A stretch of 64,000 nt of DNA from a virus: the IMG/VR virus record IMGVR_UViG_3300032516_000013, positions 26,333-90,332 of that record. The stretch is one strand, 5' to 3'. Position 1 is the stretch's first letter. The number at the start of each line of letters is the position of its first letter. The position numbers and the translations under genes were made by a program. Positions 1 to 26,873 of this stretch are shown in pieces. The notes under the pieces are model-generated. The model worked only from the letters and a program-made list of their open reading frames with translations, ran no database searches and was not told the DNA's origin.

Positions 1-867
1 ATCAAACTGAGCACCAAGCGACCACTTTGCTCTCAGCGGGAAGTCTATTGCCTCAACAGCACTTTGAGAAAGAGTAATGTTCATCTCTGGCACACCGTCT
101 CGATTCCCATTAGCATCAGTAGGAAGATCATATTGATAATCATAGGAAAGCAGAATCGTAGCAGCAGAACTTACTCCAACAGTTGTAAAGGAATAAACAC
201 CATCAGCAGCAATTGAACCAGAACCAGTAATACCAGCACCAGTAACAACTCCGTTAGCATTAGAAGTACCCAACGTAGCATATGTGCTGCCAGTCTTACT
301 CTCAACCTTCACGTTCTCCAGATTAATCAAACCAGGAGCCGTCGAAGTTGTACCACTCTTTACACCATTACCAGCACCAACATTCTCTCGCTCAACACGT
401 GCGATGGCGTACCGACGCTCAGACTGACCAGTGTGATGACCAGTCTTTGCACCAATCATGGTCTCGCCACTAGTTGCCTCACCCTTTGCTGTTCCATACA
501 ACACATCCAGATAGAACACAGCCGCAATTCTTCGGTCAATAGCCTGAACAATCGCAACCTCATTCAACACCAGTGAAGGCAGCAAAGCTGAAATCACAGG
601 CAGCTGAATACCTAAGAAGGAAATACTGTCTTCGGTCGTAGCTTCAAACAAATGAGAGTTCTGCTTACAACCAGCTTCCAAAATAGCATTGTAAAGACAT
701 TGAGCAACATTCCGCTTCTCATACATCGTGATGGGACGACCTTGGGTCTTCTCAACCCACTTACTTACTGAACGAACGAAGGGCCGAATCTTAGGATGAT
801 TCATCAGAGCGTCCCTTTGCTCCTGCACCTTCTTCATTTCGTTCTGAATAACCTCGTTCATGTTCAT
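1..867 (-). CDS. Major capsid protein, T4 gp23-like (5' part; runs off the window start)
   Basis: Not in the ORF track. My translation from ATG at 867 gives MNMNEVIQNE...SHLFEATTEDSISFLGIQLPVISALLPSLVLNEVAIVQAIDRRIAAVFYLDVLYG, matching the gp23 pattern (propeptide ending LxE, then P..V.R..P.L....I..VQ....FY). It has a GGAGA RBS and follows the prohead protease. Confidence 0.9.
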   Translation of the reverse strand, partial: MNMNEVIQNEMKKVQEQRDALMNHPKIRPFVRSVSKWVEKTQGRPITMYEKRNVAQCLYNAILEAGCKQNSHLFEATTEDSISFLGIQLPVISALLPSLVLNEVAIVQAIDRRIAAVFYLDVLYGTAKGEATSGETMIGAKTGHHTGQSERRYAIARVERENVGAGNGVKSGTTSTAPGLINLENVKVESKTGSTYATLGTSNANGVVTGAGITGSGSIAADGVYSFTTVGVSSAATILLSYDYQYDLPTDANGNRDGVPEMNITLSQSAVEAIDFPLRAKWSLGAQFD

Positions 868-897: not shown

Positions 898-3636
898 CTA
901 ACCACCAAATCGTTTAAACATTCGACCCACAGCTTCATCGGCATCATTCTGCTCTGAGTCCACAGTTGCCTCCTGGATTTGTACTTTGGTTAGCGGCTTA
1001 GAATGAAGTGCACTCCTTCTCGCAATCCCTACAAGTCTTTCCATTAGGCTATCCACTTCTTGCAAATCTTGAATTTTCTCGAGAAGTGCCCGAGTGTTTT
1101 CATCTGTTTGCAATCTATGTTCATTAAGTTTAATTTCAAAATATTCTTTTACTAATTGTTTACGTCCTTCTTGAATAGCATCGTTTGCTATTTTTGTTAA
1201 CTCTTCTTGATGAGCAGCATGAAGAACGTCTAATTTCTTTTGGTTGGATAAAGATTCTTCCAACTTCTGATTTACATCATTTACTTCCTTTGCTTTCTTT
1301 TCTAACAAAGAACGGACTCCTTTTAGTTCGGCTTCCGCTTGGGTTAACTTTAGAAGTGCCTCAGTTAGCTTTGATTGTAAGATCTTAGAAACAATAGAAA
1401 CATCTCCCGCTTTATCCAAATGCTCCAGAGAGACTTCAAGTTCTGCTTTAGAAGTTGCTTCAGAAACTTTAAGATCAATTAACTCATCAGAAAGTTTTTT
1501 GACTGGATTTTTAGATTCCTTTTTAATAGGTTCAGGTTCTGTAGCTTTATCCCACAAATCATTTAATTGACGCAATTTTTCAATATCTGTTAAATCGCTA
1601 TCAATTATTCTTTTTCTTTCAGCATTAAGTTCAGTCACAGTCCATTGTTTTTGTTTTTCATTAACCTTAGTCTCTGTCAAATCCTTAAACTCAATATCCC
1701 AACTTCCTGCGTATTGCTTGCCTTGAGTAACAGCTGCTTCCTTTTCATCTAAACCATATTTAGTTAAAATACGTTCTGGACCTTTCCCTTTAAGAACAAC
1801 AACATAACCATCATCGTGTTCCTGAACTACAACAACTACTCCTTTTTGTTTGAGGAAGTTTCGTTCATTAGTTTTGGATTCGTTTGCTGGTCTTCCATAT
1901 CCACATACTGGACAGTATTGCTCCTTCTTGTCCTGATCCATTATTAATTCTTCACCACATTTTGGACAAACGTCCTCTGCTGGAACTAAATTCTCATTTA
2001 CTTTAGATTCCTTTTTAGCAGATCCTGAAGCAACTTTATCCAAAATAACATCTTCACCTGTCTTTTTATCAATATAACGCTCGCCATCTCTCTTTACTTC
2101 ATGCTCTGGAATTCCGGTACGGCTTCCAGAAACAATTTTGTAAACATTTATAGCTTCCGTTTCCTTCATTTGAGATTCTCCAACCATTGCCAACATAGCT
2201 TGCTTCGAAGCTTCCTCAAAGGAACCATATTTTCCTAAATGATCTCCTTTATGATAAAGATTAAAGGATTTACTTCCCTTTAAATTATCGTGAGAAACTA
2301 TAACCCAATCAAGATCAGTTGACAATTCCCAAAATGATTTTTCAGAATCACTTTTTCCTATAGATTTTTTCCAAGTTTCTTTTAATTCTGATTCAGAAAC
2401 CTTTTCCAAACCCAGCCCATCAACATTTCCCCAATCAACAGTTTTTACGTTTGCTTCTCCCACATCAGTTTGACCTTCTCCACTAATAGGTTCTAAATGA
2501 AGACTCAATGAATCAGAATCAGAAACCGTCCAAAGCTTTCCATCTTTATCTTTTAACAAATTTCCTTTTTGGAATCCATGATCTTCTGTAATTTTTGATT
2601 CTTTAACTTCAGCATATGCTTCTTTTGCTTGAGGAAGAAGAATATACTTCAAATAAACTGCTTCTATTTCCCCAAGATCTAAACCTTCAGGATCTTCGAC
2701 TCCCACATCTTCTAAGGATTCAAACTTACTAAGTTGATCAATCATATCTCCGTTTTCTGGGAATTCATTAGGAATAGTCTTATTTGTTATTGCCCAATTA
2801 AGGATCTTCTGATCTTCTGGATTTATGCCTGGAATTTCTCCTATTAATTCTTGAACAGATTCTTTTACATTTTTAGATTCTTCAAGTTTAGCAATTTTCC
2901 TTTGATGTTGTTCAGGAACACCTAATTCCATCTCACTCACTAAATTCCGAACTTTGCACTTCCCAGTACCACATCTACATTCTTTGCATTGAACAGATTC
3001 CAAAATCCTAGAAGCAAATTTCTTTTCAACAAGATTCATCTTGCCTTCTTTAACCAACGCAGAAACTGTTTCTACAACATTTCTTTCGATTTTTTGAGGC
3101 TCAACTCCGTCAGTAGAAGGATCTGCGGTAAAGTCGGTAGTCACAAAGTGATAAGTATCAGACACTACTTTTTGACATTTCTTCTTTTTACCATCAGCTT
3201 CATCTATTTCAAATTCCTCAAGATCTCCTTCAGCACGAGTTGAAACTCCCACTTTACAACCTGCCCGCAATAAAGTTTCCAAAATACGACCGGTAGGGGT
3301 ATCTAAAATCTCCATTTTCTGATAAACTTTGTTATCACTTTCATCAATCCACATCTTTGTTATAATATGTGAAGTTAGTTGAAGATCGCTTTGTGTTTCT
3401 GCTGGATGTTCCCCCTGTCCAAAAAGTGTCCTATCCGCTATTTTCTGCTGAATATTTTCGTCTGCTAAAACCTTCTCCCAAACATCAGATTCATAAATTC
3501 TGTTGTTTGCATTCACCTTTCCTATATTACAAATATTGTATGTTACGCAAGAAAGAACACCTTCAGGGAGTTTAACTTTTGTAACATCTTCAATTATAGG
3601 AGCAGAAGTAATAGTCTCATTGAGTTTCATTTCCAA
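898..3636 (-). CDS. Prohead protease (T4 gp21-like) fused to central modules and a C-terminal coiled-coil scaffold region
   Basis: N-terminal N-x-N-x-R-I-Y, G-x-x-x-H-P, SH, LDTPTG..L..L, GVSTR(A)EG and DFTADPS motifs of the gp21 family. The C-terminal ~200 aa is heptad-rich. Lies directly upstream of the capsid gene. Confidence 0.9.
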   Translation of the reverse strand: MEMKLNETITSAPIIEDVTKVKLPEGVLSCVTYNICNIGKVNANNRIYESDVWEKVLADENIQQKIADRTLFGQGEHPAETQSDLQLTSHIITKMWIDESDNKVYQKMEILDTPTGRILETLLRAGCKVGVSTRAEGDLEEFEIDEADGKKKKCQKVVSDTYHFVTTDFTADPSTDGVEPQKIERNVVETVSALVKEGKMNLVEKKFASRILESVQCKECRCGTGKCKVRNLVSEMELGVPEQHQRKIAKLEESKNVKESVQELIGEIPGINPEDQKILNWAITNKTIPNEFPENGDMIDQLSKFESLEDVGVEDPEGLDLGEIEAVYLKYILLPQAKEAYAEVKESKITEDHGFQKGNLLKDKDGKLWTVSDSDSLSLHLEPISGEGQTDVGEANVKTVDWGNVDGLGLEKVSESELKETWKKSIGKSDSEKSFWELSTDLDWVIVSHDNLKGSKSFNLYHKGDHLGKYGSFEEASKQAMLAMVGESQMKETEAINVYKIVSGSRTGIPEHEVKRDGERYIDKKTGEDVILDKVASGSAKKESKVNENLVPAEDVCPKCGEELIMDQDKKEQYCPVCGYGRPANESKTNERNFLKQKGVVVVVQEHDDGYVVVLKGKGPERILTKYGLDEKEAAVTQGKQYAGSWDIEFKDLTETKVNEKQKQWTVTELNAERKRIIDSDLTDIEKLRQLNDLWDKATEPEPIKKESKNPVKKLSDELIDLKVSEATSKAELEVSLEHLDKAGDVSIVSKILQSKLTEALLKLTQAEAELKGVRSLLEKKAKEVNDVNQKLEESLSNQKKLDVLHAAHQEELTKIANDAIQEGRKQLVKEYFEIKLNEHRLQTDENTRALLEKIQDLQEVDSLMERLVGIARRSALHSKPLTKVQIQEATVDSEQNDADEAVGRMFKRFGG

Positions 3637-3664
3637 TCCTCAACTAAGTTTAATCATATTTCTC

Positions 3665-6600
3665 TTAAAGTTTGTAAACTTGATACAAATCATCTCCATA
3701 CCAAGCTTGCTCTGCTTCAGAAGCCTTACCTGTTATCTCAACACCCTTCTCTTTGTTAATTGATCTTACAGTTGCTTCCTCAACAATAACCTTCAAATCT
3801 CTCTTTAGAACTATCTGAACTACGTCACCTTCCTTGATCTCTTCATCCTCTGTAACTTCACTAGATAAACCAAGAATTCTCTCTGCCATTGCAACCGCTT
3901 TTCTACCACCAAAAGCATCATCTTTTTTATCAGGCTTCACAAATTTACCTTCTAACAAACCATTATCCTTTGCATATTGATAAGCAGACTTATGCCAATC
4001 CTTTGCATCTAAGAAACCATCCTCCACTGCTTCCCAAACATCCTCATCATTCCATTCTTTAATAGTCTCGTTGGCTTTCTTATTGATAAGTTCAATATGA
4101 GCTCTATCTCGTTCAAACCAAGTATCAATCTCAGTGTCTTCAATAGTTATTTCTTCAAGAATTTTCTGAGATTCTTTTGCAGATTCCTTTTTTGCTTCTT
4201 GACATACTCCTCCAGACACTTTCTTAGCACTTAAAACTTTGACGCCCGGCTTTTTAGAAAGCATTCTCTTTGCTTCTTCTTCATCCAAAGCTTCTACTCT
4301 TGTATGTGTTTTCTTTCCATCCTTTTCGTATTCTACTTCATAGACTTCTTTAGTAAAGCCTACATCTTCACCACGAGCTTCGTTGGTTTTAGATTCAACA
4401 ATAAAAGTTTCCTCTCCCCTATCTTTTAATTTTTTATCATATTTTAACATCAAATTCTTTAACTCATTTTCCGGAACTTCATCTGCTGTTCGACAATGAT
4501 GTTTCTTCAACAAAGATTTCACTTCAGCATTCCATCCTTTGGAAAACTCTTCATCTTCAGAAAGAGTTTCATCCATATCTGGAAATATCTGATATATATT
4601 TTGTTCATGTTTCTCATTTGTTTTAGATTCAAATGGTAGTTTCTCCTCACCAGCAGCAACTTCTACTTCCTCTTCCTCCGGCTTCACTGCTTGTTCAGCA
4701 GCTTCCTCTTCTGGAGTTTCCATTTCCTCATGACCAAGTTCTCCTTCAGAAGGAACAGCTAATTCCTCTGGAGTAAGTGAAGCAGTTATAGGAGGTTCGG
4801 GTGGAGCAGGTATAACCGTTACAACACCATCATTACCAATATTAACTGCAGTATTACCATTTATGTTTACACTAACAGAAGCACCAGCTTCATCACCAAC
4901 TGTTAAAGAAATATTTGCTTCAGTAATCTTTGTAATTACAGCCGTCTTATCTTTATATTTAACTACTGTACCTTCTTGAAGCTTGCCTTCCTTTACAGCA
5001 TTCTTGATTATAAGTTTGGATTCCTTAGTAATGCATTCTGCATAATCTTTACCAGATTTCTTAAGAACACTCTTACAAATATTTGCAACATCTTCAAGTT
5101 CAACGCCTTCTTCTCCTGCCCAAACTTGAAGAACTAATCTACAAATATTTTCTAAAGTTGGTTCCTTACCACCTAAAAGATCCTCATTCATTTTAGATTC
5201 CTCAACTTTACCAGAACCAATTAGTTCAGCATATTCTCCATCATCCAAATGCTTAAGAGTTTCTAAAGCAAGTTCCTGCACACCTTCATTAGTCAATTTA
5301 CCAGAATCATCACTTCCAAACAACTTAGCAAAATCCGGTTGGAAATGAAAATCTCGCTTATTGATTTGGAGAGTTACTTCTTTATCGCTTCCCTCATCCA
5401 TAATCTGGACGCTAAAGGAATTACCTTTATCGTCCTTGACTTGAGTTGTTTCTGAAAGTGTATCTTCTTTTACTTCTTTTTCTTTCTTCATTTTCTTAGA
5501 TCCACATTTTTCAGATGTTTCTACGTCTTTTATATCTTCATCCTTTTCAACTCCACCACACTTCTCAAACGGCCAATGAGCCTTCTTACATTTAAAACAC
5601 GTAGGTGCTGTTTTTTCATCTACAGATTCCTTCTCTTCTGTATCCTTTTCATCTTTGGCTTTTGCATCACGATTCATTTTCTTGGACGCTTTAGCAGCGT
5701 CTGCGGCGTCATCTGCAACGTCTTCTAATGCTCTAGCAGCTTCTTCATAGTCCTTTACTTTCAATGCGTTAGAAGCGGCCCTAACTGCTGTTTTTAAGGA
5801 TCTCATATAATCAATACCCATTTTGGCTTCATTGGTTTGTATTTTTGATTCCCCAAAATATCCTTTAGCTTTTTCTCTGCTAGAAACATGGACAAGAACT
5901 CCTGCACCTTTATTTTCTGGATCTGGAATTGCTTCAATTCCTTCTTTTTTCAGATCAGCAAGAATTTCTTTTCTTCTATCTGGGTCCCAAACGGTATATG
6001 GAACCCATTCTCTGTCTTTATATATTACAGTATCTTTCTTCTCTTTCATTTTAGATTCCTCAACTTCTACATCCGCTTTTTCCAATTCAACTTTAAGAAT
6101 CTCTCCACTTCTCCACTTAGCCTGGAATCGACGTCTTGCTTCATTTTCATCTCTTCCATAATATCCAGCGACATGTTTTTGACCTTTGCCTTTGTTACTT
6201 TCTTCTCGTTTATTTCTCCAAGTAATGGTATACATATTGGTCTTATATTCTTGAACCTTCTTTGATTCTAAAGGTTTTTCTTTCTTAGATTTTTCTTCTC
6301 CAGGAACTTCTTCCTTAGAAACATCTTCTGGTTCTTCCAAACCCAATTCTTCTTCTGTATCTTCTTCCTCTTCAGCTTCTATTTCTTCTTTAGCCGGAGG
6401 CACAAGATATTGTAAAACCACGCTACGCTCAATCTGAGCAATATCAATTTCATCAATAGCTGCTAAAATAAACTGAGCAACATTTGTAGTATCTATTTCA
6501 TGCTCTTTAGCTGAATAAACTTTATTGCCTTCTTGATCATCTATTTTAAGATCTTCGATTTCACCTTGATCATTTTTGTCAACAACTACATAATAATGCA

Positions 6601-7186
6601 TATCGTCTTTACGACCTAAATAAAGCTTGTCGAAATCAGGTGTAGCTGCTTCTTCTGGTACTTCAGGAACATCTAAATCCTCTTCCTCTGGAGGAAGTTC
6701 ATCATCTCCTATAGGATTTTCAGGAGGAATATCATCACCAATCTCATTAATTTTATTCTCGTATTTCATAAGATTAGAATGTTTCTGAAGACAAGATTCA
6801 ACTTCTTTAAGACGGTTGGTTAATAATTCAAGAGCATCTGGTTCCCATTCTCTAGAAGAAATGCCCTTCTCTATACTAGATTTTAGATTTCTTAATCCTT
6901 CTACAAACATGTGTTCAGGATTTGCTGTACCAACCAAAAATTTGGCAGCTTCAATATCTCCGGCTCTCTCGATTAGTTTGGATTCTTTTGTTTCCTTCCC
7001 AGTGTCAACATCAATATCAACACCATTACATTTTGGGCATCTCATTTCAGTACTAGGATTCTTCCTATTAAATCTATAACCACATTCCTGACATTGCCAG
7101 TCTTTCATATCTTCCTGAAGTTTAGAATCTTCTTCCGACAGAAGCTGATCCTTATTCTCAATCATTTCCCGCATTATATCTTCCAT
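3665..7186 (-). CDS. Large acidic prohead core/internal head protein (putative polyprotein)
   Basis: 1173 aa, very E/K-rich, with two Cys/His Zn-ribbon-like modules and about 12 ESK-x-x-E-like motifs; next to the protease gene. Confidence 0.6.
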   Translation of the reverse strand: MEDIMREMIENKDQLLSEEDSKLQEDMKDWQCQECGYRFNRKNPSTEMRCPKCNGVDIDVDTGKETKESKLIERAGDIEAAKFLVGTANPEHMFVEGLRNLKSSIEKGISSREWEPDALELLTNRLKEVESCLQKHSNLMKYENKINEIGDDIPPENPIGDDELPPEEEDLDVPEVPEEAATPDFDKLYLGRKDDMHYYVVVDKNDQGEIEDLKIDDQEGNKVYSAKEHEIDTTNVAQFILAAIDEIDIAQIERSVVLQYLVPPAKEEIEAEEEEDTEEELGLEEPEDVSKEEVPGEEKSKKEKPLESKKVQEYKTNMYTITWRNKREESNKGKGQKHVAGYYGRDENEARRRFQAKWRSGEILKVELEKADVEVEESKMKEKKDTVIYKDREWVPYTVWDPDRRKEILADLKKEGIEAIPDPENKGAGVLVHVSSREKAKGYFGESKIQTNEAKMGIDYMRSLKTAVRAASNALKVKDYEEAARALEDVADDAADAAKASKKMNRDAKAKDEKDTEEKESVDEKTAPTCFKCKKAHWPFEKCGGVEKDEDIKDVETSEKCGSKKMKKEKEVKEDTLSETTQVKDDKGNSFSVQIMDEGSDKEVTLQINKRDFHFQPDFAKLFGSDDSGKLTNEGVQELALETLKHLDDGEYAELIGSGKVEESKMNEDLLGGKEPTLENICRLVLQVWAGEEGVELEDVANICKSVLKKSGKDYAECITKESKLIIKNAVKEGKLQEGTVVKYKDKTAVITKITEANISLTVGDEAGASVSVNINGNTAVNIGNDGVVTVIPAPPEPPITASLTPEELAVPSEGELGHEEMETPEEEAAEQAVKPEEEEVEVAAGEEKLPFESKTNEKHEQNIYQIFPDMDETLSEDEEFSKGWNAEVKSLLKKHHCRTADEVPENELKNLMLKYDKKLKDRGEETFIVESKTNEARGEDVGFTKEVYEVEYEKDGKKTHTRVEALDEEEAKRMLSKKPGVKVLSAKKVSGGVCQEAKKESAKESQKILEEITIEDTEIDTWFERDRAHIELINKKANETIKEWNDEDVWEAVEDGFLDAKDWHKSAYQYAKDNGLLEGKFVKPDKKDDAFGGRKAVAMAERILGLSSEVTEDEEIKEGDVVQIVLKRDLKVIVEEATVRSINKEKGVEITGKASEAEQAWYGDDLYQVYKL

Positions 7187-7537: not shown

Positions 7538-8026
7538 TTATTTCTTCCCTAATTTTGCTTCTCTCATCTTTGCTTTAGTCTCTTCCGACCTAGGTTTTCT
7601 CAATTTCTGCTTGTGCTCTTCCGACTTAGGCTTCCCTAAATGAGATTCTCGTATTTTTTCAATAGTTTCCGCAGACATAGGGCCACGTTTCTTCCCTAAA
7701 TGAGATTCTCGTAATTTTTCAATAGTCTCATCAGAACATATCTTTCCCCCCTGTCCACCAGAATTAAGATTATATCCATTAGGCCATTGAGTGTTTAATT
7801 CAACAATATATGCTTGTTCAAGTTCGTACGCTTCTTCATAGCTGTCGGCTGCGTCGAGAATATCAAAATCAAAATCATGCTTTCTTAACTTGTTTCCAAT
7901 AAGAGAATTATTTTTTATGTGTTCATAAAATCTCTTCTCCGGATCTTTAGAAACACCAATGTAAGAAAATCCTTTTTCTAAATGGTTCTCATCAATATTA
8001 GTATAGATATAGATGTAGATCTTCAT
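7538..8026 (-). CDS. GIY-YIG homing endonuclease with NUMOD3 repeats
   Basis: IYIY...YIG..K....R...H, LE...I, GYN....GG, then repeated SxETIEKxRESHLG. Confidence 0.85.
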   Translation of the reverse strand: MKIYIYIYTNIDENHLEKGFSYIGVSKDPEKRFYEHIKNNSLIGNKLRKHDFDFDILDAADSYEEAYELEQAYIVELNTQWPNGYNLNSGGQGGKICSDETIEKLRESHLGKKRGPMSAETIEKIRESHLGKPKSEEHKQKLRKPRSEETKAKMREAKLGKK

Positions 8027-11089: not shown

Positions 11090-11986
11090 CTATTGTTTCG
11101 CTGCTAATTGCTCTAATAATTTTGGGATATTTTCCAAAATATCAGAAGATGAGACACAAAAACCTAATGTCCCATTGGGGTAAATAAGTGAAACTAATCC
11201 ATAACATTTTCCATTTAAACCAAAAATAGGACCACCAGAATTTCCCAGATTAACAGAAGTATCAACCTGTATAAAAATCTGACTCCCTCCTAAAAACTTT
11301 CCTATTCTGCTAACTACTCCAGTTGAAATACTATTTGTTAATCCTCCTGGATTCCCAATCATTAATAAACTTCGTCCGATTCTTAAATCTCTTATATCTC
11401 CGAACTGAACAGGAGTTAACTCTAAACAATCAGGAATATCAATCTTTAAAATTCCTAAATCGATTGAAGAAACAAGTGATTCTGGATTAGAAATATCAAA
11501 AGGAATATTAATAAAATTCCGTATTTCAAAAATTTCTCCAGAATATATCTGAACAGTTGCCTTAACATCCCAATATGTGTTAGGGTCAGATAAAAAACCT
11601 TTCAAAGAATCAACAACATGAGAAGCTGTTAAAATATTTCCTTCCTTATCTAAAACCATTCCAGAAGCATTAACATACGTTAGAACTTCTTTTCCTGTCA
11701 TTGGATGACGGGTTTTTGCTATTACATTCACACAAACAACTGTTGGATTAAGTCTTTCTACTAAATTCGGAATTTGTTCTTCACAAATATTATCTTGAAT
11801 ATTTCCCAACAATTTCTTATACAGCATGCAATCTCTCTCAACTAATTGTTCTACTAGCTGAGTAGTTCGACCTTGGGTGTATAAAATATCTAACTTCCTT
11901 GTTCGCATTTGATAGTTCAAAAAGCTTATATTAACAACAGCAACCAACAAAATCGAAACAATTGATATTTGAATCCATCTCTTCAT
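11090..11986 (-). CDS. Trypsin-like (HtrA/DegP-type, no PDZ) serine protease with N-terminal membrane anchor
   Basis: ILTASHV, DLGIL and VNLGNSGGP catalytic triad motifs; hydrophobic N-terminus. Confidence 0.9.
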   Translation of the reverse strand: MKRWIQISIVSILLVAVVNISFLNYQMRTRKLDILYTQGRTTQLVEQLVERDCMLYKKLLGNIQDNICEEQIPNLVERLNPTVVCVNVIAKTRHPMTGKEVLTYVNASGMVLDKEGNILTASHVVDSLKGFLSDPNTYWDVKATVQIYSGEIFEIRNFINIPFDISNPESLVSSIDLGILKIDIPDCLELTPVQFGDIRDLRIGRSLLMIGNPGGLTNSISTGVVSRIGKFLGGSQIFIQVDTSVNLGNSGGPIFGLNGKCYGLVSLIYPNGTLGFCVSSSDILENIPKLLEQLAAKQ

Positions 11987-12600: not shown

Positions 12601-14970
12601 TCATCTCCCTAAAGACTTCTCCCAGTAAGCACCATCTTTAGTTTCTTCTGCTCTTTTGAAACCCATTTTCTCTAACATAGATTGGGATGCTATATTAAAA
12701 GATTCTACATATCCTCTTGCCTTAGTGACCCCATATTTTTCAATAGCATATTTTATTCCAAACTCCAATAATTCTGGACCATACCCGCTACCTTTTATCC
12801 GAGCATCTAATCTAGTCAAATATACTAATTTATCTTTACTATTTATGTCGAGGGTGGCTTCTACTACTAAATCATCACTTATATCAAGCCAAGTTTTGGT
12901 TTCTTTATTTAGCCGTCCATCAAAAAAAATTCTGACCTTCTTATCCGTAATTGTGATATCTAATCGTCTGGTTTTATATTCTCTCTTGTCTTCCTGAGTC
13001 TCTTCTCCAATTATATATTCAAATAGTTCTTCTTTAACTTTCTTGGTCTCTTTTGATTCTCTGATTTCTAATTTGGAACCACACTTTGGACAAGTCATAG
13101 TTTTAAGAACTTCTGGCTTTGTTTCCTTTACAGTTTTTCTATAACTACGCCAAGGACATTCCTTGCTCGTACAAACTAACTCAGTCCAATCTCTCCAATA
13201 TCCTCTAGCTTCTACAGCTTTTGTAATTTTGGATTTATGCATTACTCTTTTATCAAAACCAGCATTACCAAGTTCATCCAAATCATAATATGTCTTACCT
13301 TCATCAGTTGAGAAGCAAGTAGGACATCTCTTAGATTGCCAATCAGGTTTATGATCCGGAGATCTCGCATCATTAACATCCATCCACTCTTCTGGATTAT
13401 CTGTAAGTTCTGTTAAAGGTTTATACTCTGCCAATTTGTTAAATATGGAAGTTGTTAATCCCGCGGAGAATCCGGAATGTCCTTGATCAGCAAACTTCTG
13501 GATAAGATCCATTACTGCTTCACCAATCATTCCATCGTAGTCAGAATCTTTATCAAATAGTCCTGCTAATTGAAGTTCCTTCTTTGCAAAGTCAGTTAGA
13601 GATTCATTTATTGATTCCCAAGCTTCTGCTTCTTTTTTACCATAACCATAAGTAAGAATATATTCTAATTGATCTATATTTTTTATACTTATTGGAGAAC
13701 TACTATCAAAGTCTTCTCTATCTAGATCTAGAAACATCTTTTCAATTCCTGAACCATATTCTTTATACAGACGAAGAAAAGATTCTATTTGTTTCTGTGT
13801 AGGTTTGTTATTTCCTCCAGTTATCCCTATTTCTTTTGCATGCGGGGAAAAGTAACCAGCTATTGCTCCAGCAAAGTACATATCACTTGGAGCAATATCA
13901 ATTTTGTTAATAGTAACCAAATAAGCATAGAAAACTGGAATAACTGTTCCATCAGTAAGTAACCAAAACTTTAGTTCTCCTCTTTCTTTACCTGAGTAAG
14001 TACATGGAACTAACTTTTGACTTTTTCCTTTATAATAGTTCTTTAGCTTTGTTTGAACTTTACCAAGTGGTAAGAATGCTTCTTGAATGGATTCCCCCAT
14101 CTTCTTATATTTAGCAATATAGCTCTTTGTCTCTTCAGGAAGTTTAGATCCACCAACACCATTATTCCCCTTTAGATTACCAACACCCCAATTATAGGCA
14201 GCTAATCGATTCTCAAGATTATCCTCAAGATTATAATGCTTTAATAATCGAGGGATTTCTATGTTTAAATAATAAGAACCAACCTTCCTATTCTTGTTGG
14301 AATCGAATGCTTCTTCCCAAGACCATTGGACATTCATCTTGCGAGTCATCTCTTCCCAAGTAGGTTTTGTTATCTGAAGAAGACCTCTTGCTCCAGATCT
14401 TTTGTTCTCGGCCTTTGGATTATTTGAAGATTCGATTGATGCTATTTTAGATATGTTGATTTGAGGAGAAGCTTTTGGAGATACAATAGTAAACTTAGGA
14501 GTTACTTCTTGTCGAGAAGGGGCAGAGATAGTAGGTGGTTCGCTTTTGTCTTTAGGAACGCTTGTCTGCATACCTCCTAGGCCTATCAAACTGGCTGCTG
14601 CAGTTGTAACTAATGTTTTGCCTAGACCTTCCTCTAATTTGTTTACTCTATCTCTAAATTCTTCCCAATGACCAGTAGAACTATAAGATTCAAAATATTC
14701 TATATCCCCATCAGGATGAATCCAACCACCTTTATAAGATAATTGTTCATTCAATAATTCATTCTTCTTCGCCTGGATCTTCATTACAACATTACGAAAT
14801 GCTTCTGAACTTTCCTTGCACATATCATCAGAAGTGTCAATATTATCTAAGATTTGATAGAGAGCCTTAGCAACTTGCTCCCAGGTCATATCCTTGCTCT
14901 CTTTAAGAGAAATGAGTTTACCTAGAATCATTTGATCTGTGAAAAAAGAATTGGCTTCGATAAAATCCAT
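12601..14970 (-). CDS. Multidomain protein with an SLT lytic transglycosylase, a Zn ribbon and a C-terminal GNAT (putative internal virion polyprotein)
   Basis: IASIESS...SGARGLLQI...AAYNWG (SLT); IKGSGYG...N.AS..MLEKMGF (GNAT); ES-x-x-E linkers between modules. Confidence 0.8.
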   Translation of the reverse strand: MDFIEANSFFTDQMILGKLISLKESKDMTWEQVAKALYQILDNIDTSDDMCKESSEAFRNVVMKIQAKKNELLNEQLSYKGGWIHPDGDIEYFESYSSTGHWEEFRDRVNKLEEGLGKTLVTTAAASLIGLGGMQTSVPKDKSEPPTISAPSRQEVTPKFTIVSPKASPQINISKIASIESSNNPKAENKRSGARGLLQITKPTWEEMTRKMNVQWSWEEAFDSNKNRKVGSYYLNIEIPRLLKHYNLEDNLENRLAAYNWGVGNLKGNNGVGGSKLPEETKSYIAKYKKMGESIQEAFLPLGKVQTKLKNYYKGKSQKLVPCTYSGKERGELKFWLLTDGTVIPVFYAYLVTINKIDIAPSDMYFAGAIAGYFSPHAKEIGITGGNNKPTQKQIESFLRLYKEYGSGIEKMFLDLDREDFDSSSPISIKNIDQLEYILTYGYGKKEAEAWESINESLTDFAKKELQLAGLFDKDSDYDGMIGEAVMDLIQKFADQGHSGFSAGLTTSIFNKLAEYKPLTELTDNPEEWMDVNDARSPDHKPDWQSKRCPTCFSTDEGKTYYDLDELGNAGFDKRVMHKSKITKAVEARGYWRDWTELVCTSKECPWRSYRKTVKETKPEVLKTMTCPKCGSKLEIRESKETKKVKEELFEYIIGEETQEDKREYKTRRLDITITDKKVRIFFDGRLNKETKTWLDISDDLVVEATLDINSKDKLVYLTRLDARIKGSGYGPELLEFGIKYAIEKYGVTKARGYVESFNIASQSMLEKMGFKRAEETKDGAYWEKSLGR

Positions 14971-15509: not shown

Positions 15510-15881
15510 TTAGTGTTGGAGAGGCGGTAAAACATCCTTCTTCATCGAGAGTTTCTTTTCTATCTGCCCAAGCATATACAAAATCCTATATGCAAAACTC
15601 TTAGCAATATCTGGCTTCAACATTACCATATCCAACCAAGGATGTCCGGTCTTTAAGACACTCCAAGCACATCTAATTCTCCTAGGCCAAGATAGTTTTC
15701 CATTACCATAAGGACCAAATCCCCAGAAGCTAATGCTAATTCCATAATAGTTAAATTCATCTTCCATCTTTCCATCTCTGGAGACAACTACTTCAGAATC
15801 ATCATTTGCTAGGAATTCAGAATAGACAACGAGTCCCTCAGACAGGCAATCACATTCAAACAATGGCTTGGAATTTTTCAT
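15510..15881 (-). CDS. Hypothetical phage protein
   Basis: 123-aa ORF overlapping the end of the HNH gene. Confidence 0.55.
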   Translation of the reverse strand: MKNSKPLFECDCLSEGLVVYSEFLANDDSEVVVSRDGKMEDEFNYYGISISFWGFGPYGNGKLSWPRRIRCAWSVLKTGHPWLDMVMLKPDIAKSFAYRILYMLGQIEKKLSMKKDVLPPLQH

Positions 15882-25953: not shown

Positions 25954-26873
25954 TATTTAACTCCCTTCAATAACTCTGGTTCATTTCCTACTATCCAATA
26001 TACTATTTTTCCTTCATGAATTAAGGACTTTCCAATCAGATTCTTTTTAACCCAAGTAAATGTTTTCGCTTCGTAAACTGGATGAAATTTAATGTCTCCA
26101 AAGGAAATATCCTCTACCCTCTTTTCGTAAGTCATTCCTTCAGCAAACAGATCCATATAATTAAATGGATAATTCCAACAATTAACTCCTGTAAGCATCG
26201 CAAGATTTGAAAGTCTGTCTTGAACTTTCTTCTTACGACTAGGAGCAGTTCCTAACAACCAAACATGATTTACCTTCCTATTCCACTTCTGCAAGCCGTA
26301 GATTATCCCTGCAGCCGTGATCCCTGATCCACAGGTCACCGCTAAGTGTTCAATCTCTTCAGGTAGATTGTGAACTTGAATAGCTGTTGAATCATAAAAT
26401 GCCACAAGATTGTGAGGATCCTTGGAGTTCATCCCATAATTTACAATGAAATCACCATCCTCCTTTATCTTCTTAATTTCATGATAAAGAACCGAAGATC
26501 TTCCAGAATTTGCTATTTGAATCTCTGCTCCAAAGTGCTTAACCAACCGAGGCATGTGCTTTTCATCAAGATATTCCTTCTTTGTTCCTCCATAGAACAC
26601 AATACATTCCATGCCAAAATATTTGGATAGTGCTGCAATTATTGGTGCCTGCGGAGAGTTTAAAGAACATCCCGTTAAGATTCTCTTATAGCCTTGCTCT
26701 TTCGCTTGTGCTAAGAGAAATGCTCCTTGACGAAATTTGCCACCATTAACATTGCCAAGACCAAAAGGAGTAAACAAATCATCTCTCTTAAAGAATACAC
26801 CTTCAACCTCTTGAACTGGTGTTAATTCAAAGGCTCCAAGATCTTCTAATAATTGTTGAGAGGAAAGAATCAT
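25953..26873 (-). CDS. PLP-dependent enzyme (ACC deaminase/D-cysteine desulfhydrase fold)
   Basis: LTPV.....KRDD......GGK.R, SPQ, CGSGITAAG, P.YEAK, WIVG. Confidence 0.82.
   Translation of the reverse strand: MILSSQQLLEDLGAFELTPVQEVEGVFFKRDDLFTPFGLGNVNGGKFRQGAFLLAQAKEQGYKRILTGCSLNSPQAPIIAALSKYFGMECIVFYGGTKKEYLDEKHMPRLVKHFGAEIQIANSGRSSVLYHEIKKIKEDGDFIVNYGMNSKDPHNLVAFYDSTAIQVHNLPEEIEHLAVTCGSGITAAGIIYGLQKWNRKVNHVWLLGTAPSRKKKVQDRLSNLAMLTGVNCWNYPFNYMDLFAEGMTYEKRVEDISFGDIKFHPVYEAKTFTWVKKNLIGKSLIHEGKIVYWIVGNEPELLKGVK

Follow-up and report, generated by a model that had tools for sequence, protein, structure and literature searches.

Two adjacent genes directly upstream of a gp23-type major capsid gene in an uncultured phage encode long head proteins, p1173 and p912, whose small modules are separated by a recurring linker, E-S-(K/Q)-hydrophobic-x-E. 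Cleavage of this linker by the phage's own protease, carried on p912, is our best reading, because the linker is conserved across the clade, lies between domains, bounds module insertions and deletions, and resembles a site in the capsid protein. We judge that the linkers are probably cut, whatever the fate of the pieces, and lean, with less assurance, towards at least some modules then being retained in the head. The window analysed is a 64,000-nucleotide stretch of IMG/VR record IMGVR_UViG_3300032516_000013 (positions 26,333 to 90,332 of that record; Table 1), in which the gene order is p1173, p912, capsid, with 31 bp between the end of the p912 gene and the capsid gene. Translation of p912 was taken from a TTG codon at 3636; the database gene call uses an ATG two codons on, at 3630, giving 910 aa.

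Table 1. Features of the head-gene region, in window coordinates.
Feature	Position	Strand	Basis or remark
gp23-type major capsid protein, N-terminal 289 aa of 502 aa	1..867	-	rest beyond the window's left edge
NSHLFE, capsid protein residues 70-75, predicted propeptide cleavage site before ATTEDSISFLG	643..660	-	20-protein alignment
p912, protease, putative cargo modules and scaffold-like tail in a single chain	898..3636	-	ORF, Pfam, PHROG, AF2
p912 conserved C-terminal coiled-coil, scaffold-like domain, residues 661-912	901..1656	-	AF2, conservation
NTRALLE site in p912 tail	1078-1098	-	near-invariant N-[ST]-R-A-L-L-E
p912 variable module region, residues 253-660	1657..2880	-	motifs and low coverage among relatives
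S77 (T4 gp21-type) prohead protease domain, p912 residues ~1-215	2992..3636	-	PF03420, phrog_207, alignment to 5jbl_A
p1173, 1173-aa multi-module head protein	3665..7186	-	ORF; gene directly upstream of protease gene
p1173 linker motifs, n=11	4154..7129	-	re-translated coordinates
DSKLQE	7112-7129	-	
ESKLIE	6968-6985	-	
ENKINE	6743-6760	-	
ESKKVQE	6248-6268	-	
ESKMKE	6041-6058	-	
ESKIQTNE	5828-5851	-	
ESVDE	5615-5629	-	
ESKMNE	5183-5200	-	
ESKTNE	4613-4630	-	
ESKTNE	4379-4396	-	
ESQKILE	4154-4174	-	
Third multi-module protein, 789 aa, same linker grammar	12601..14970	-	Pfam and motifs

The original prediction had listed eight such motifs in p912 and eleven in p1173, and every one was found in place in the translations; those separating blocks in the p912 variable region are ESKNVKE, ESKITE, ESELKE, ESQMKE, ESKVNE, ESKTNE and ETKVNE. 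The enrichment in head genes that it had proposed to test was far above chance, both in shuffles and against the rest of the contig. The pattern ES[KQ].{0,3}[VILMT].E has 5 copies in p912 and 8 in p1173 (shuffled means, 0.14 and 0.21), a total of 13 against ~0.35 expected, with none of 5000 shuffles as high in either protein, and just two in the other 116 ORFs (26,637 aa) of the 90-kb contig. The two proteins also hold 9 of the 10 contig copies of the stricter ES[KQ]xxE. The linker can also lack the lysine, as in ES-[VILMT]-x-E, 7 of whose 9 contig copies fall in four head-region multi-module proteins.

The same linker marks a large uncultured clade. Across 72 extensions (46,677 aa) at the C-termini of related long S77 proteases, ESK was observed 217 times against 47.9 expected, typically followed by a hydrophobic residue (V in 71, I in 30 and L in 27 of 216), then N, D or K, then Glu (123 of 216). 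Motif density in 28 IMG/VR loci (L009 left out as a near-duplicate of L007) was 1.76 per 1000 aa for the protease and upstream genes versus 0.25 elsewhere. The motif is specific to head genes.

At its N-terminus, p912 passes the Peptidase S77 model (PF03420, 40.7 bits against a cut-off of 27, residues 40-142) and matches phrog_207, 'head maturation protease', at 3e-33 over residues 35-208; its only PDB sequence match is T4 gp21 (5jbl_A, E 0.0098). His77 and Ser132 occur in all 25 aligned long proteases and line up with two positions, those of the T4 gp21 catalytic residues, that are Ala in the crystallised T4 chain. Because the Pfam cut-off is passed and these residues are invariant, the p912 protease looks active. 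The protease N-terminus carries a conserved M-x-L-x-E in the 25-sequence alignment. Coverage among 134 related proteins is 100-125 over the protease domain, falls to 3-23 in the variable region and returns to 80-90 in the tail, which AF2 models as helices at 711-742, 745-839 (these two long), 858-876 and 894-910. Within the tail site, N847, A850, L851 and L852 do not vary among the 25 sequences, at least 90% of which retain E853. A long coiled-coil, a conserved C-terminal 200 aa and a position directly upstream of the capsid gene place the tail in the scaffolding class, an assignment from architecture only because the tail matched no sequence family. P2 gpO and lambda C/Nu3 likewise combine an N-terminal maturation protease and C-terminal scaffolding in one frame directly upstream of the capsid gene, using other protease families, and we know of no cassette region between protease and scaffold in fusions of that type.

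The capsid protein itself (Pfam Gp23 match; T4 gp23 structures at 3e-16) offers a comparison for the linker. In 20 of 20 aligned capsid proteins, its N-terminal region contains [LMIV]-x-E right before (A/T/S/N)T, with K, R or H at P4 in 15 of 20 and S or T at P5 in 11 of 20, so that linker and capsid site share the core rule [S/T]-[K/R/H]-hydrophobic-x-E. This conserved site is presumably the maturation cut; by a very weak alignment (0.7 bits), it lies ~16 residues further towards the conserved core than would the cut in T4 gp23. The excerpted text of PMC9026906 describes T4 gp21 as cleaving behind the Glu of L/I-x-E and T4 core proteins as having several cut sites. The proposed fit of the linker to the gp21 rule held: it ends in hydrophobic-x-Glu and resembles the capsid site.

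The blocks between motifs proved as varied as predicted: mostly 43-92 aa, with a few of 162-252 aa, and comprising Zn ribbons, beta domains, hairpins and acidic stretches. The p912 variable region holds six modules of 43-92 aa. Zn ribbons were weak Pfam matches (p912 556-580, p1173 30-54), and in the AF2 models of both proteins there are small beta domains, helical hairpins and acidic stretches lacking structure; p1173 has the appearance of beads on a string. In p1173, a conserved backbone (residues ~177-263, ~577-660, ~940-990 and ~1097-1173) alternates with variable modules; backbone modules occur in the upstream genes of related loci and are conserved in up to 25 relatives, while several optional modules are unique among 130 related proteins. 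Its start is a predicted helix (residues 2-28, pLDDT 54-72) that contains DSKLQE at 20-25; among the p1173 homologues (P0002-P0009), the leader is similar in P0002-P0008. In the models, the linkers are exposed, between predicted domains: 16 of 18 sites (10 of 11 in p1173, 6 of 7 in p912) fall in segments with pLDDT<50, which make up 41% of p1173 and 33% of p912 residues and whose low scores are partly due to shallow alignments (25 and 21 sequences). The exceptions, ESELKE in p912 and DSKLQE in p1173, fall within helices predicted with medium or high confidence. The modules are for the most part acidic or neutral; T4 IPII and IPIII are basic. Searches of Pfam, PHROGs and structures gave no recognisable effector function for any p912 or p1173 module: PHROGs returned the protease only, and no family for p1173; Pfam returned S77 and weak Zn ribbons only, with just the latter in p1173; and Foldseek found no PDB match to the modules at E <= 0.001, the best VIA Z being 7.1, for a helical hairpin. 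The label 'cargo' is thus drawn from analogy and from a neighbouring gene.

That neighbour, the 789-aa protein, combines an SLT transglycosylase (residues 173-269), the linker ESIQE (14080-14094), a module without assignment, ESINE (13603-13617), Tad3 (457-563, 2.8e-34), ETKKVKE and GNAT (722-772; domains from Pfam). Tad3 is a Thoeris inhibitor, and the protein brings known cargo-type domains into the neighbourhood of the p912 and p1173 genes.

Comparison of close relatives revealed modules in motion. Among four orthologues with 98% identity (962 of 983 columns), 74-aa and 58-aa indels span exactly from motif to motif, and a 63-aa Zn-ribbon insert ends with ESKINE. The claim that indel boundaries coincide with the motif stood for these whole modules and failed in part in a wider sample: of nine distinct insertions between pairs at least 80% identical, three had the strict motif at both ends, one at one end and five at neither (random expectation per end, 0.18; boundaries were BLAST segment ends and are rough). 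An exhaustive search with one 68-aa module gave eight genuine matches, with the strict motif at 5 of 8 upstream and 7 of 8 downstream ends and EAKVKE at one further downstream end. The suggestion that modules also occur as stand-alone ORFs was not upheld for this module, the shortest of ten matches being a 403-aa protein in which it is internal; a search for shorter p1173 relatives gave only two proteins, of 551 and 597 aa. Modules are movable units, with exchange between protease and upstream genes seen in relatives: 20 relatives carry p1173 residues 669-858 inside the protease gene and 6 inside the upstream gene, and p912 residues 253-351 also occur in upstream-type and third genes.

We propose that p912 and p1173 are prohead-core polyproteins. 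In p912, the S77 protease would be joined via optional small modules to the coiled-coil tail, which would bring the chain into the assembling prohead; p1173 would hold the place of the T4 prohead-core genes, with a backbone of three or four modules and optional ones inserted between. The protease would recognise the hydrophobic-x-Glu end of the linker as its own site, with specificity added by the Ser-Lys before it. Upon closure of the shell, the activated protease would cut after the second Glu, and perhaps also the first. Its targets would be all the linkers, the scaffold tail and the capsid protein in its N-terminal region, and the cuts would free, inside the capsid, the protease domain and ~20 small folded proteins of 5-10 kDa. 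Each module would travel with its own linker, so that its gain, loss or transfer from one head gene to another would leave the remainder undisturbed.

The linkers might instead be cut only to dismantle the core, the pieces leaving before DNA entry and the modules serving as filler or size determinants. In T4, cleavage breaks gp22, gp67 and gp68 into several fragments, most of which exit the head (PMC9026906, excerpts), and the genes described here sit at the position of T4 gp67-gp68-gp21-gp22, just before the capsid gene; the prevailing module charge, the p1173 backbone shared by up to 25 relatives and the lack of detected effector domains in p912 and p1173 also agree with this. However, optional modules that differ between 98%-identical phages, several of them unique among 130 proteins, are unexpected in essential core parts; passage through shell pores would be unlikely for Zn ribbons and for folded domains of 5-10 kDa; and the same linkers part SLT, Tad3 and GNAT in the 789-aa protein, domains that would make sense only if delivered. 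We regard dismantling as unlikely, if a serious contender. An uncut flexible spacer, in intact multi-domain head-core or internal proteins through which a favoured soluble linker spread with its modules, seems distinctly improbable. E/K/S-rich linkers are common in modular proteins, and the vRNAP of phage N4 is packaged unprocessed, as noted by the authors of PMC5512222 in its excerpted text, but a spacer has no need of a fixed hydrophobic-x-Glu register, would not recur at the capsid site or scaffold tail, and would not be restricted to head genes beside a Glu-specific protease family.

Very little weight falls on cleavage by another enzyme. Some trypsin-fold enzymes are Glu-specific, and a candidate trypsin-fold serine protease with a hydrophobic N-terminal segment lies at 11090-11986 of the window; this 298-aa ORF hits phrog_11383, a family of unknown function, and gives a weak match to a protease PHROG, and 6 of 29 related loci have relatives of it in their head region. 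It is absent, however, from the 20-kb neighbourhoods of the other 23, including L007 with 11 ESK in the two genes, and its N-terminus suggests a membrane or periplasmic location. The S77 protease accompanies the motif throughout. Hardly credible, finally, is a recombination scar, in which a conserved 9-nt microhomology, GAA TCN AAA, drives DNA-level shuffling and the peptide is functionless. All 17 linker Ser codons in the window belong to the TCN family, against a 22% share of AGY among Ser codons across the two genes, and GAATCTAAA is the most frequent linker spelling in relatives. Yet linker Ser in relatives is drawn from both codon families (107 TCN and 20 AGY of 127), which argues that selection acts on the protein sequence; Glu and Lys codons also vary, as do the spelling and spacing of the functional part, hydrophobic-x-E. 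Microhomology may help shuffling, but it leaves the capsid and scaffold sites unexplained.

Read as protease-cut polyproteins, p912 and p1173 have one of their closest counterparts in the T4 prohead core (gp22, gp67, gp68, IPI-III, Alt), which shares an S77 protease in the core, a hydrophobic-x-Glu rule, multi-site core proteins, genes just before the gp23-type capsid gene, and small internal proteins freed in the head, some of them ejected (PMC9026906, excerpts). However, each T4 internal protein is a separate gene with a short N-terminal leader, the capsid targeting sequence, that ends in a gp21 site and directs the protein to the core, whereas here ~20 modules are chained in the 912-aa and 1173-aa ORFs, with an extended E-S-K-h-x-E site and cassette shuffling; T4 gp21 is ~200 aa and gp22 a separate scaffold, whereas here a protease-scaffold fusion carries modules. 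In the giant phages phiKZ (gp175) and SPN3US (gp245), gp21-related proteases also cut after Glu (S/A-x-E or A/S/G-x-E), long propeptides carry redundant sites, the protease's C-terminal propeptide is removed and many proteins are ejected; there, however, cuts mostly take N-terminal propeptides off single proteins (13 of 14 sites in SPN3US), P3 is small rather than hydrophobic, and no beads-on-a-string arrangement or protease-gene cargo is described (PMC10052503 and PMC9026906, in the excerpts of both).

Polyvalent proteins (Iyer et al. 2017, PMC5512222, excerpts) are likewise large and multi-domain; their genes lie among virion genes, and they are predicted to enter the particle and to be delivered with the DNA, in some cases after proteolytic processing, but they are defined by enzymatic or anti-defence effectors, and their processing is ascribed to built-in zincin-like peptidases. 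By contrast, p912 and p1173 have tiny domains of unknown function and a regular linker fitting the prohead protease; no Pfam zincin-like metallopeptidase family matched them at E <= 0.1, a search that could miss a divergent domain. Several effector or anti-defence domains are found together in the 789-aa protein (SLT, Tad3, GNAT) and not in p912 or p1173, so it is closer to the polyvalent class. Our literature search found no paper describing such linker-joined head polyproteins.

Tentatively, these phages may represent a large uncultured T4-like clade with true capsid-cargo polyproteins, in which the maturation protease itself would pull the train of cassettes, a six-residue linker would be both cut site and plug-in point, and any small gene set between two linkers would automatically be packaged, released in the head and injected with the DNA; we hold this full form to be possible rather than probable. 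If it is true, anti-defence proteins such as the neighbouring Tad3 module would be delivered this way, and the arrangement would constitute a general, evolvable protein-delivery system, together with a large stock of uncharacterised early proteins made in advance.

The source is an uncultured tailed phage, whose 90,332-bp contig, partly covered by the window, carries nearly all of its genes on the minus strand, among them those for a T4-type portal, a family-A-like DNA polymerase, helicases, an RNA ligase and a gp23-type major capsid protein. Two head proteins concern us here: p912, a 912-aa protein comprising a protease, modules and a scaffold-like tail, and p1173, a multi-module protein of 1173 aa. 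A single 107-aa ORF separates p1173 from a homing endonuclease gene.

Features of the head region and its neighbourhood (window positions unless given as L002 and G000 C1, two numberings of the same locus)
Feature	Position	Strand	Remarks
gp23-type major capsid gene, 502 aa	867 to beyond left window edge	-	after p912
p912	898-3636	-	between p1173 and capsid gene
p1173	3665-7186	-	first in minus-strand order, before p912
Widely shared beta-beta-alpha-beta module, p1173 937-992	4211-4378	-	pLDDT ~95
GIY-YIG homing endonuclease	7538-8026	-	phrog_314, 1.9e-31; near head genes
Trypsin-fold serine protease	11090-11986	-	GNSGGP motif, N-terminal hydrophobic segment; head region
789-aa protein	12601-14970	-	SLT transglycosylase, unknown module, Tad3 Thoeris inhibitor (2.8e-34), then GNAT
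123-aa ORF	15510-15881	-	
T4-type portal, 826 aa	19313-21793	-	Pfam Portal_T4 at residues 373-646
286-aa protein	L002 829-1689 = G000 C1 17829-18689	-	DUF5661 at 166-209, ESKLKE at 215-220
1010-aa protein	L002 3009-6041 = G000 C1 20009-23041	-	downstream of capsid gene, left of window

The N-terminus of p912 is an S77 prohead-protease domain (Pfam 40.7 bits, cut-off 27; phrog_207, 3e-33), and T4 gp21 was the sole PDB sequence match of the protein. His77 and Ser132, which we take to be the catalytic pair, are invariant among 25 aligned relatives and align with the two sites that are Ala in the T4 chain used for crystallisation. GenBank phage matches to the protease domain reached 27-39% identity at most; no relative of p1173 was found among GenBank phages, and this protein gave weak Zn-ribbon matches and otherwise no family. 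A protein search returned 98 long S77 proteases of 503-1306 aa, the nearer ones 42-68% identical in the protease domain, together with nine relatives of p1173. Protease-type proteins span 533-1545 aa (median 846), and because the shortest consist of protease and tail only, the middle region is optional. BLAST coverage of p912 extended over residues 1-220 and 700-912 in 80-125 of 134 relatives and over residues 240-700 in 3-23.

All 19 linker motifs listed in the original prediction were present in the translations. Every copy terminates in [VILMT]-x-E, 0-2 residues past E-S-K/Q, and the motif is therefore E-S-(K/Q)-(0-2 aa)-hydrophobic-x-E. Counted as ES[KQ].{0,3}[VILMT].E, it occurred five times in p912 and eight times in p1173 versus 0.14 and 0.21 in shuffled sequences (counts reached by 0/5000 shuffles), and twice in the remaining 26,637 aa of the contig; the proposed enrichment in head genes was thus borne out, with 13 copies against 2. 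A lysine-less form, ES-[VILMT]-x-E, was found nine times in the contig, seven of them in four head-region proteins (p912, p1173, the 789-aa protein in the window and the 1010-aa protein just outside it). Across 72 protease extensions, ESK was observed 217 times versus 47.9 expected, with the aligned context E-S-K-[V/I/L]-[N/D/K]-E. A single-protein scan of IMG/VR gave no match; an alignment-based scan succeeded, and most of the 29 loci fetched encode a large motif-bearing protein, then a long protease, then a capsid gene. After one locus (L009) was dropped as a duplicate, motif density was 1.76 per 1000 aa in the protease and upstream genes versus 0.25 in other ORFs. One protein, P0010 (1242 aa), has a very different, R/A/G/P-rich make-up and a single module in common with p1173 (residues 1012-1080, 61% identity); it lacks ESK and has a recurrent x-N-P dipeptide instead (12 observed versus 2.4 expected; 0/2000 shuffles reach 12), which may be another linker code.

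As described in passages of PMC9026906, T4 gp21 recognises L/I-x-E, cleaving behind the Glu, and has several sites in core proteins, in agreement with the (I/L)-x-E rule cited for it in the original prediction; for the phiKZ and SPN3US enzymes, portions of PMC9026906 and PMC10052503 give cleavage behind the Glu of S/A/G-x-E and long propeptides that contain such sites redundantly. Aligned capsid proteins carry [LMIV]-x-E at one position of the N-terminal region in 20/20 cases, directly before (A/T/S/N)T-T-E-D, with K/R/H at P4 in 15/20 and S/T at P5 in 11/20; the window sequence reads N-S-H-L-F-E|A. The scaffold-like tail of the long proteases bears a near-invariant N-S-R-A-L-L-E, and the protease N-terminus a conserved M-x-L-x-E. 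Capsid protein, tail and protease N-terminus, three further expected substrates, share the linker rule, and cleavage at the linkers is well motivated. The residue two before the linker's first Glu is likewise often hydrophobic (V, L, I or T in 97/216 contexts), which makes a double cut releasing a hexapeptide possible. Linkers and capsid-protein sites were also compared for co-variation between loci, which was uninformative since one rule applies throughout the clade. The 123-aa ORF starts M-K-N-S-K-P-L-F-E, a short leader that closes on this S-K...hydrophobic-x-E rule and may serve in capsid targeting.

Modules behave in part as cassettes. Four p1173 orthologues (P0003, P0004, P0006 and P0007), 98% identical over ungapped columns (962/983), differ by seven gap blocks: modules of 74 and 58 aa inserted exactly motif-to-motif, a 63-aa Zn-ribbon module with a terminal ESKINE, three indels of just 4, 6 and 9 aa within the motifs themselves, and one of 16 aa where the sequence is acidic and of low complexity. 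A broader but rougher sample of nine distinct insertions, from pairs at least 80% identical, had the strict motif at both ends in three, at one end in one and at neither in five, the chance of a motif being 0.18 per insertion end. Insertion exactly between linkers, as originally proposed, is seen for the 74- and 58-aa modules of the near-identical orthologues, and the wider sample fits it only in part. Modules also recur across genes, with p1173 residues 669-858 found in 20 relatives within the protease gene and in six within the upstream gene, residues 446-512, 520-580 and 1108-1173 in some protease extensions, and p912 residues 253-351 in upstream-type and third genes. When 1.84 billion representatives were searched exhaustively by HMMER with one module of 68 aa, ten matches came back, two of which look spurious; the remaining eight lie internal to proteins of 403-925 aa, flanked by the strict motif upstream in 5/8 and downstream in 7/8, with one further downstream end reading EAKVKE. 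A search for shorter p1173 relatives among the 8000 candidates sharing the most words yielded two proteins, 597 and 551 aa long, and not one module standing alone, so that neither search bore out the idea that modules also exist as separate ORFs.

AlphaFold2 models of p912 and p1173, built from shallow alignments (25 and 21 sequences; mean pLDDT 63 and 61), contained confident small domains with low-confidence stretches between them. Sites fell mostly in the low-confidence stretches: 10/11 in p1173 and 6/7 in p912 lie in segments with pLDDT<50 (41% and 33% of all residues, respectively), and dips at p912 346-352 and 484-490 sit almost exactly at motifs; because low pLDDT stems partly from thin alignments, these positions are supportive, not decisive. 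Two sites, DSKLQE (p1173 20-25) and ESELKE (p912 415-420), fall in predicted helices. Foldseek comparison of the p1173 model with the PDB returned nothing at E <= 0.001. VIA-align yielded nothing beyond generic small folds. It related residues 448-522 to a helical hairpin (Z 7.1) and residues 724-787 and 1116-1173 to SH3/Tudor-like barrels (Z 5.3-5.9), and it matched the beta-beta-alpha-beta module weakly to a chain of 73 aa in the P74-26 portal-vertex map (Z 6.6, 25% identity), to YkzG, which binds RNA polymerase (Z 5.6), and to a vertex chain of phicrAss001 (Z 5.1). Every score is under the tool's informative level, and we therefore read no function into these matches. No p912 or p1173 module had a recognisable function (Foldseek and VIA-align on the p1173 model), and ESM Atlas gave no usable match for p1173 residues 177-266.

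Similar separators occur in neighbouring multi-module proteins. In the 789-aa protein, ESIQE and ESINE separate the SLT domain, the unknown module and Tad3, with ETKKVKE also among the separators; ESKDMTWE at residues 24-31 might end a targeting leader. In the 1010-aa protein a larger intein, which includes an HNH endonuclease, spans residues 126-481 and is followed by modules separated by KESIQE, KESIEE and KESIQE, and its last 156 aa resemble residues 285-453 of the 789-aa protein (39% identity). 'Modules' common to this protein and the portal were ruled out as cargo, being inteins (portal residues 86-219; Intein_splicing, 2.9e-14). The ESKLKE of the 286-aa protein is the only strict ES[KQ]xxE outside p912 and p1173, and DUF5661 recurs as a module in relatives' polyproteins too.

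We lean, by slightly better than even judgement, towards linkers that are cut to yield cargo; the cargo part draws on analogy with T4, on how much the modules vary and on the SLT, Tad3 and GNAT domains of the neighbouring 789-aa protein. The main rival, in which the linkers are cut only to dispose of the core, is rather unlikely in our estimate and is in keeping with most modules being acidic or neutral. An uncut spacer would leave the fixed hydrophobic-x-Glu register unexplained, along with the capsid-protein and scaffold sites, and we consider it improbable. Cutting by the trypsin-fold protease of the head region is very improbable, as its relatives occur in only 6/29 of the fetched 20-kb neighbourhoods and are missing from motif-rich ones such as L007. 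Linker Ser codons in relatives comprise 107 TCN and 20 AGY; this use of both families indicates selection on the peptide, and DNA microhomology driving module shuffling with a functionless peptide, the least credible reading of all, cannot account for everything. Microhomology may nevertheless help shuffling, and the 17/17 TCN codons in the window are consistent with linkers moving together with their modules.

The favoured arrangement of cleaved, cargo-bearing linkers follows the scheme of T4 gp21 and the internal and core proteins of T4, with three differences: many modules are chained, some lie inside a protease-scaffold fusion, and the cleavage site is longer. There is conceptual overlap with polyvalent proteins as portrayed in parts of PMC5512222; p912 and p1173 are without the effector domains described there, and Pfam reported no zincin peptidase in either at E <= 0.1. 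A full-text literature search found no paper describing such linkers. Should the pieces simply leave the head instead, the locus still shows how a protease-scaffold fusion accommodates large inserts and swaps them. With cleavage at the linkers, the specificity known for gp21-type proteases would grow from three residues to about six, the motif would offer a simple sequence rule for spotting candidate injected proteins in metagenomes, and a ready-made design for loading foreign proteins into phage heads would be suggested. Cleavage would also imply a so far undescribed modular loading and diversifying of capsid cargo in tailed phages, with dozens of small, functionally uncharacterised domains acting at the very start of infection.
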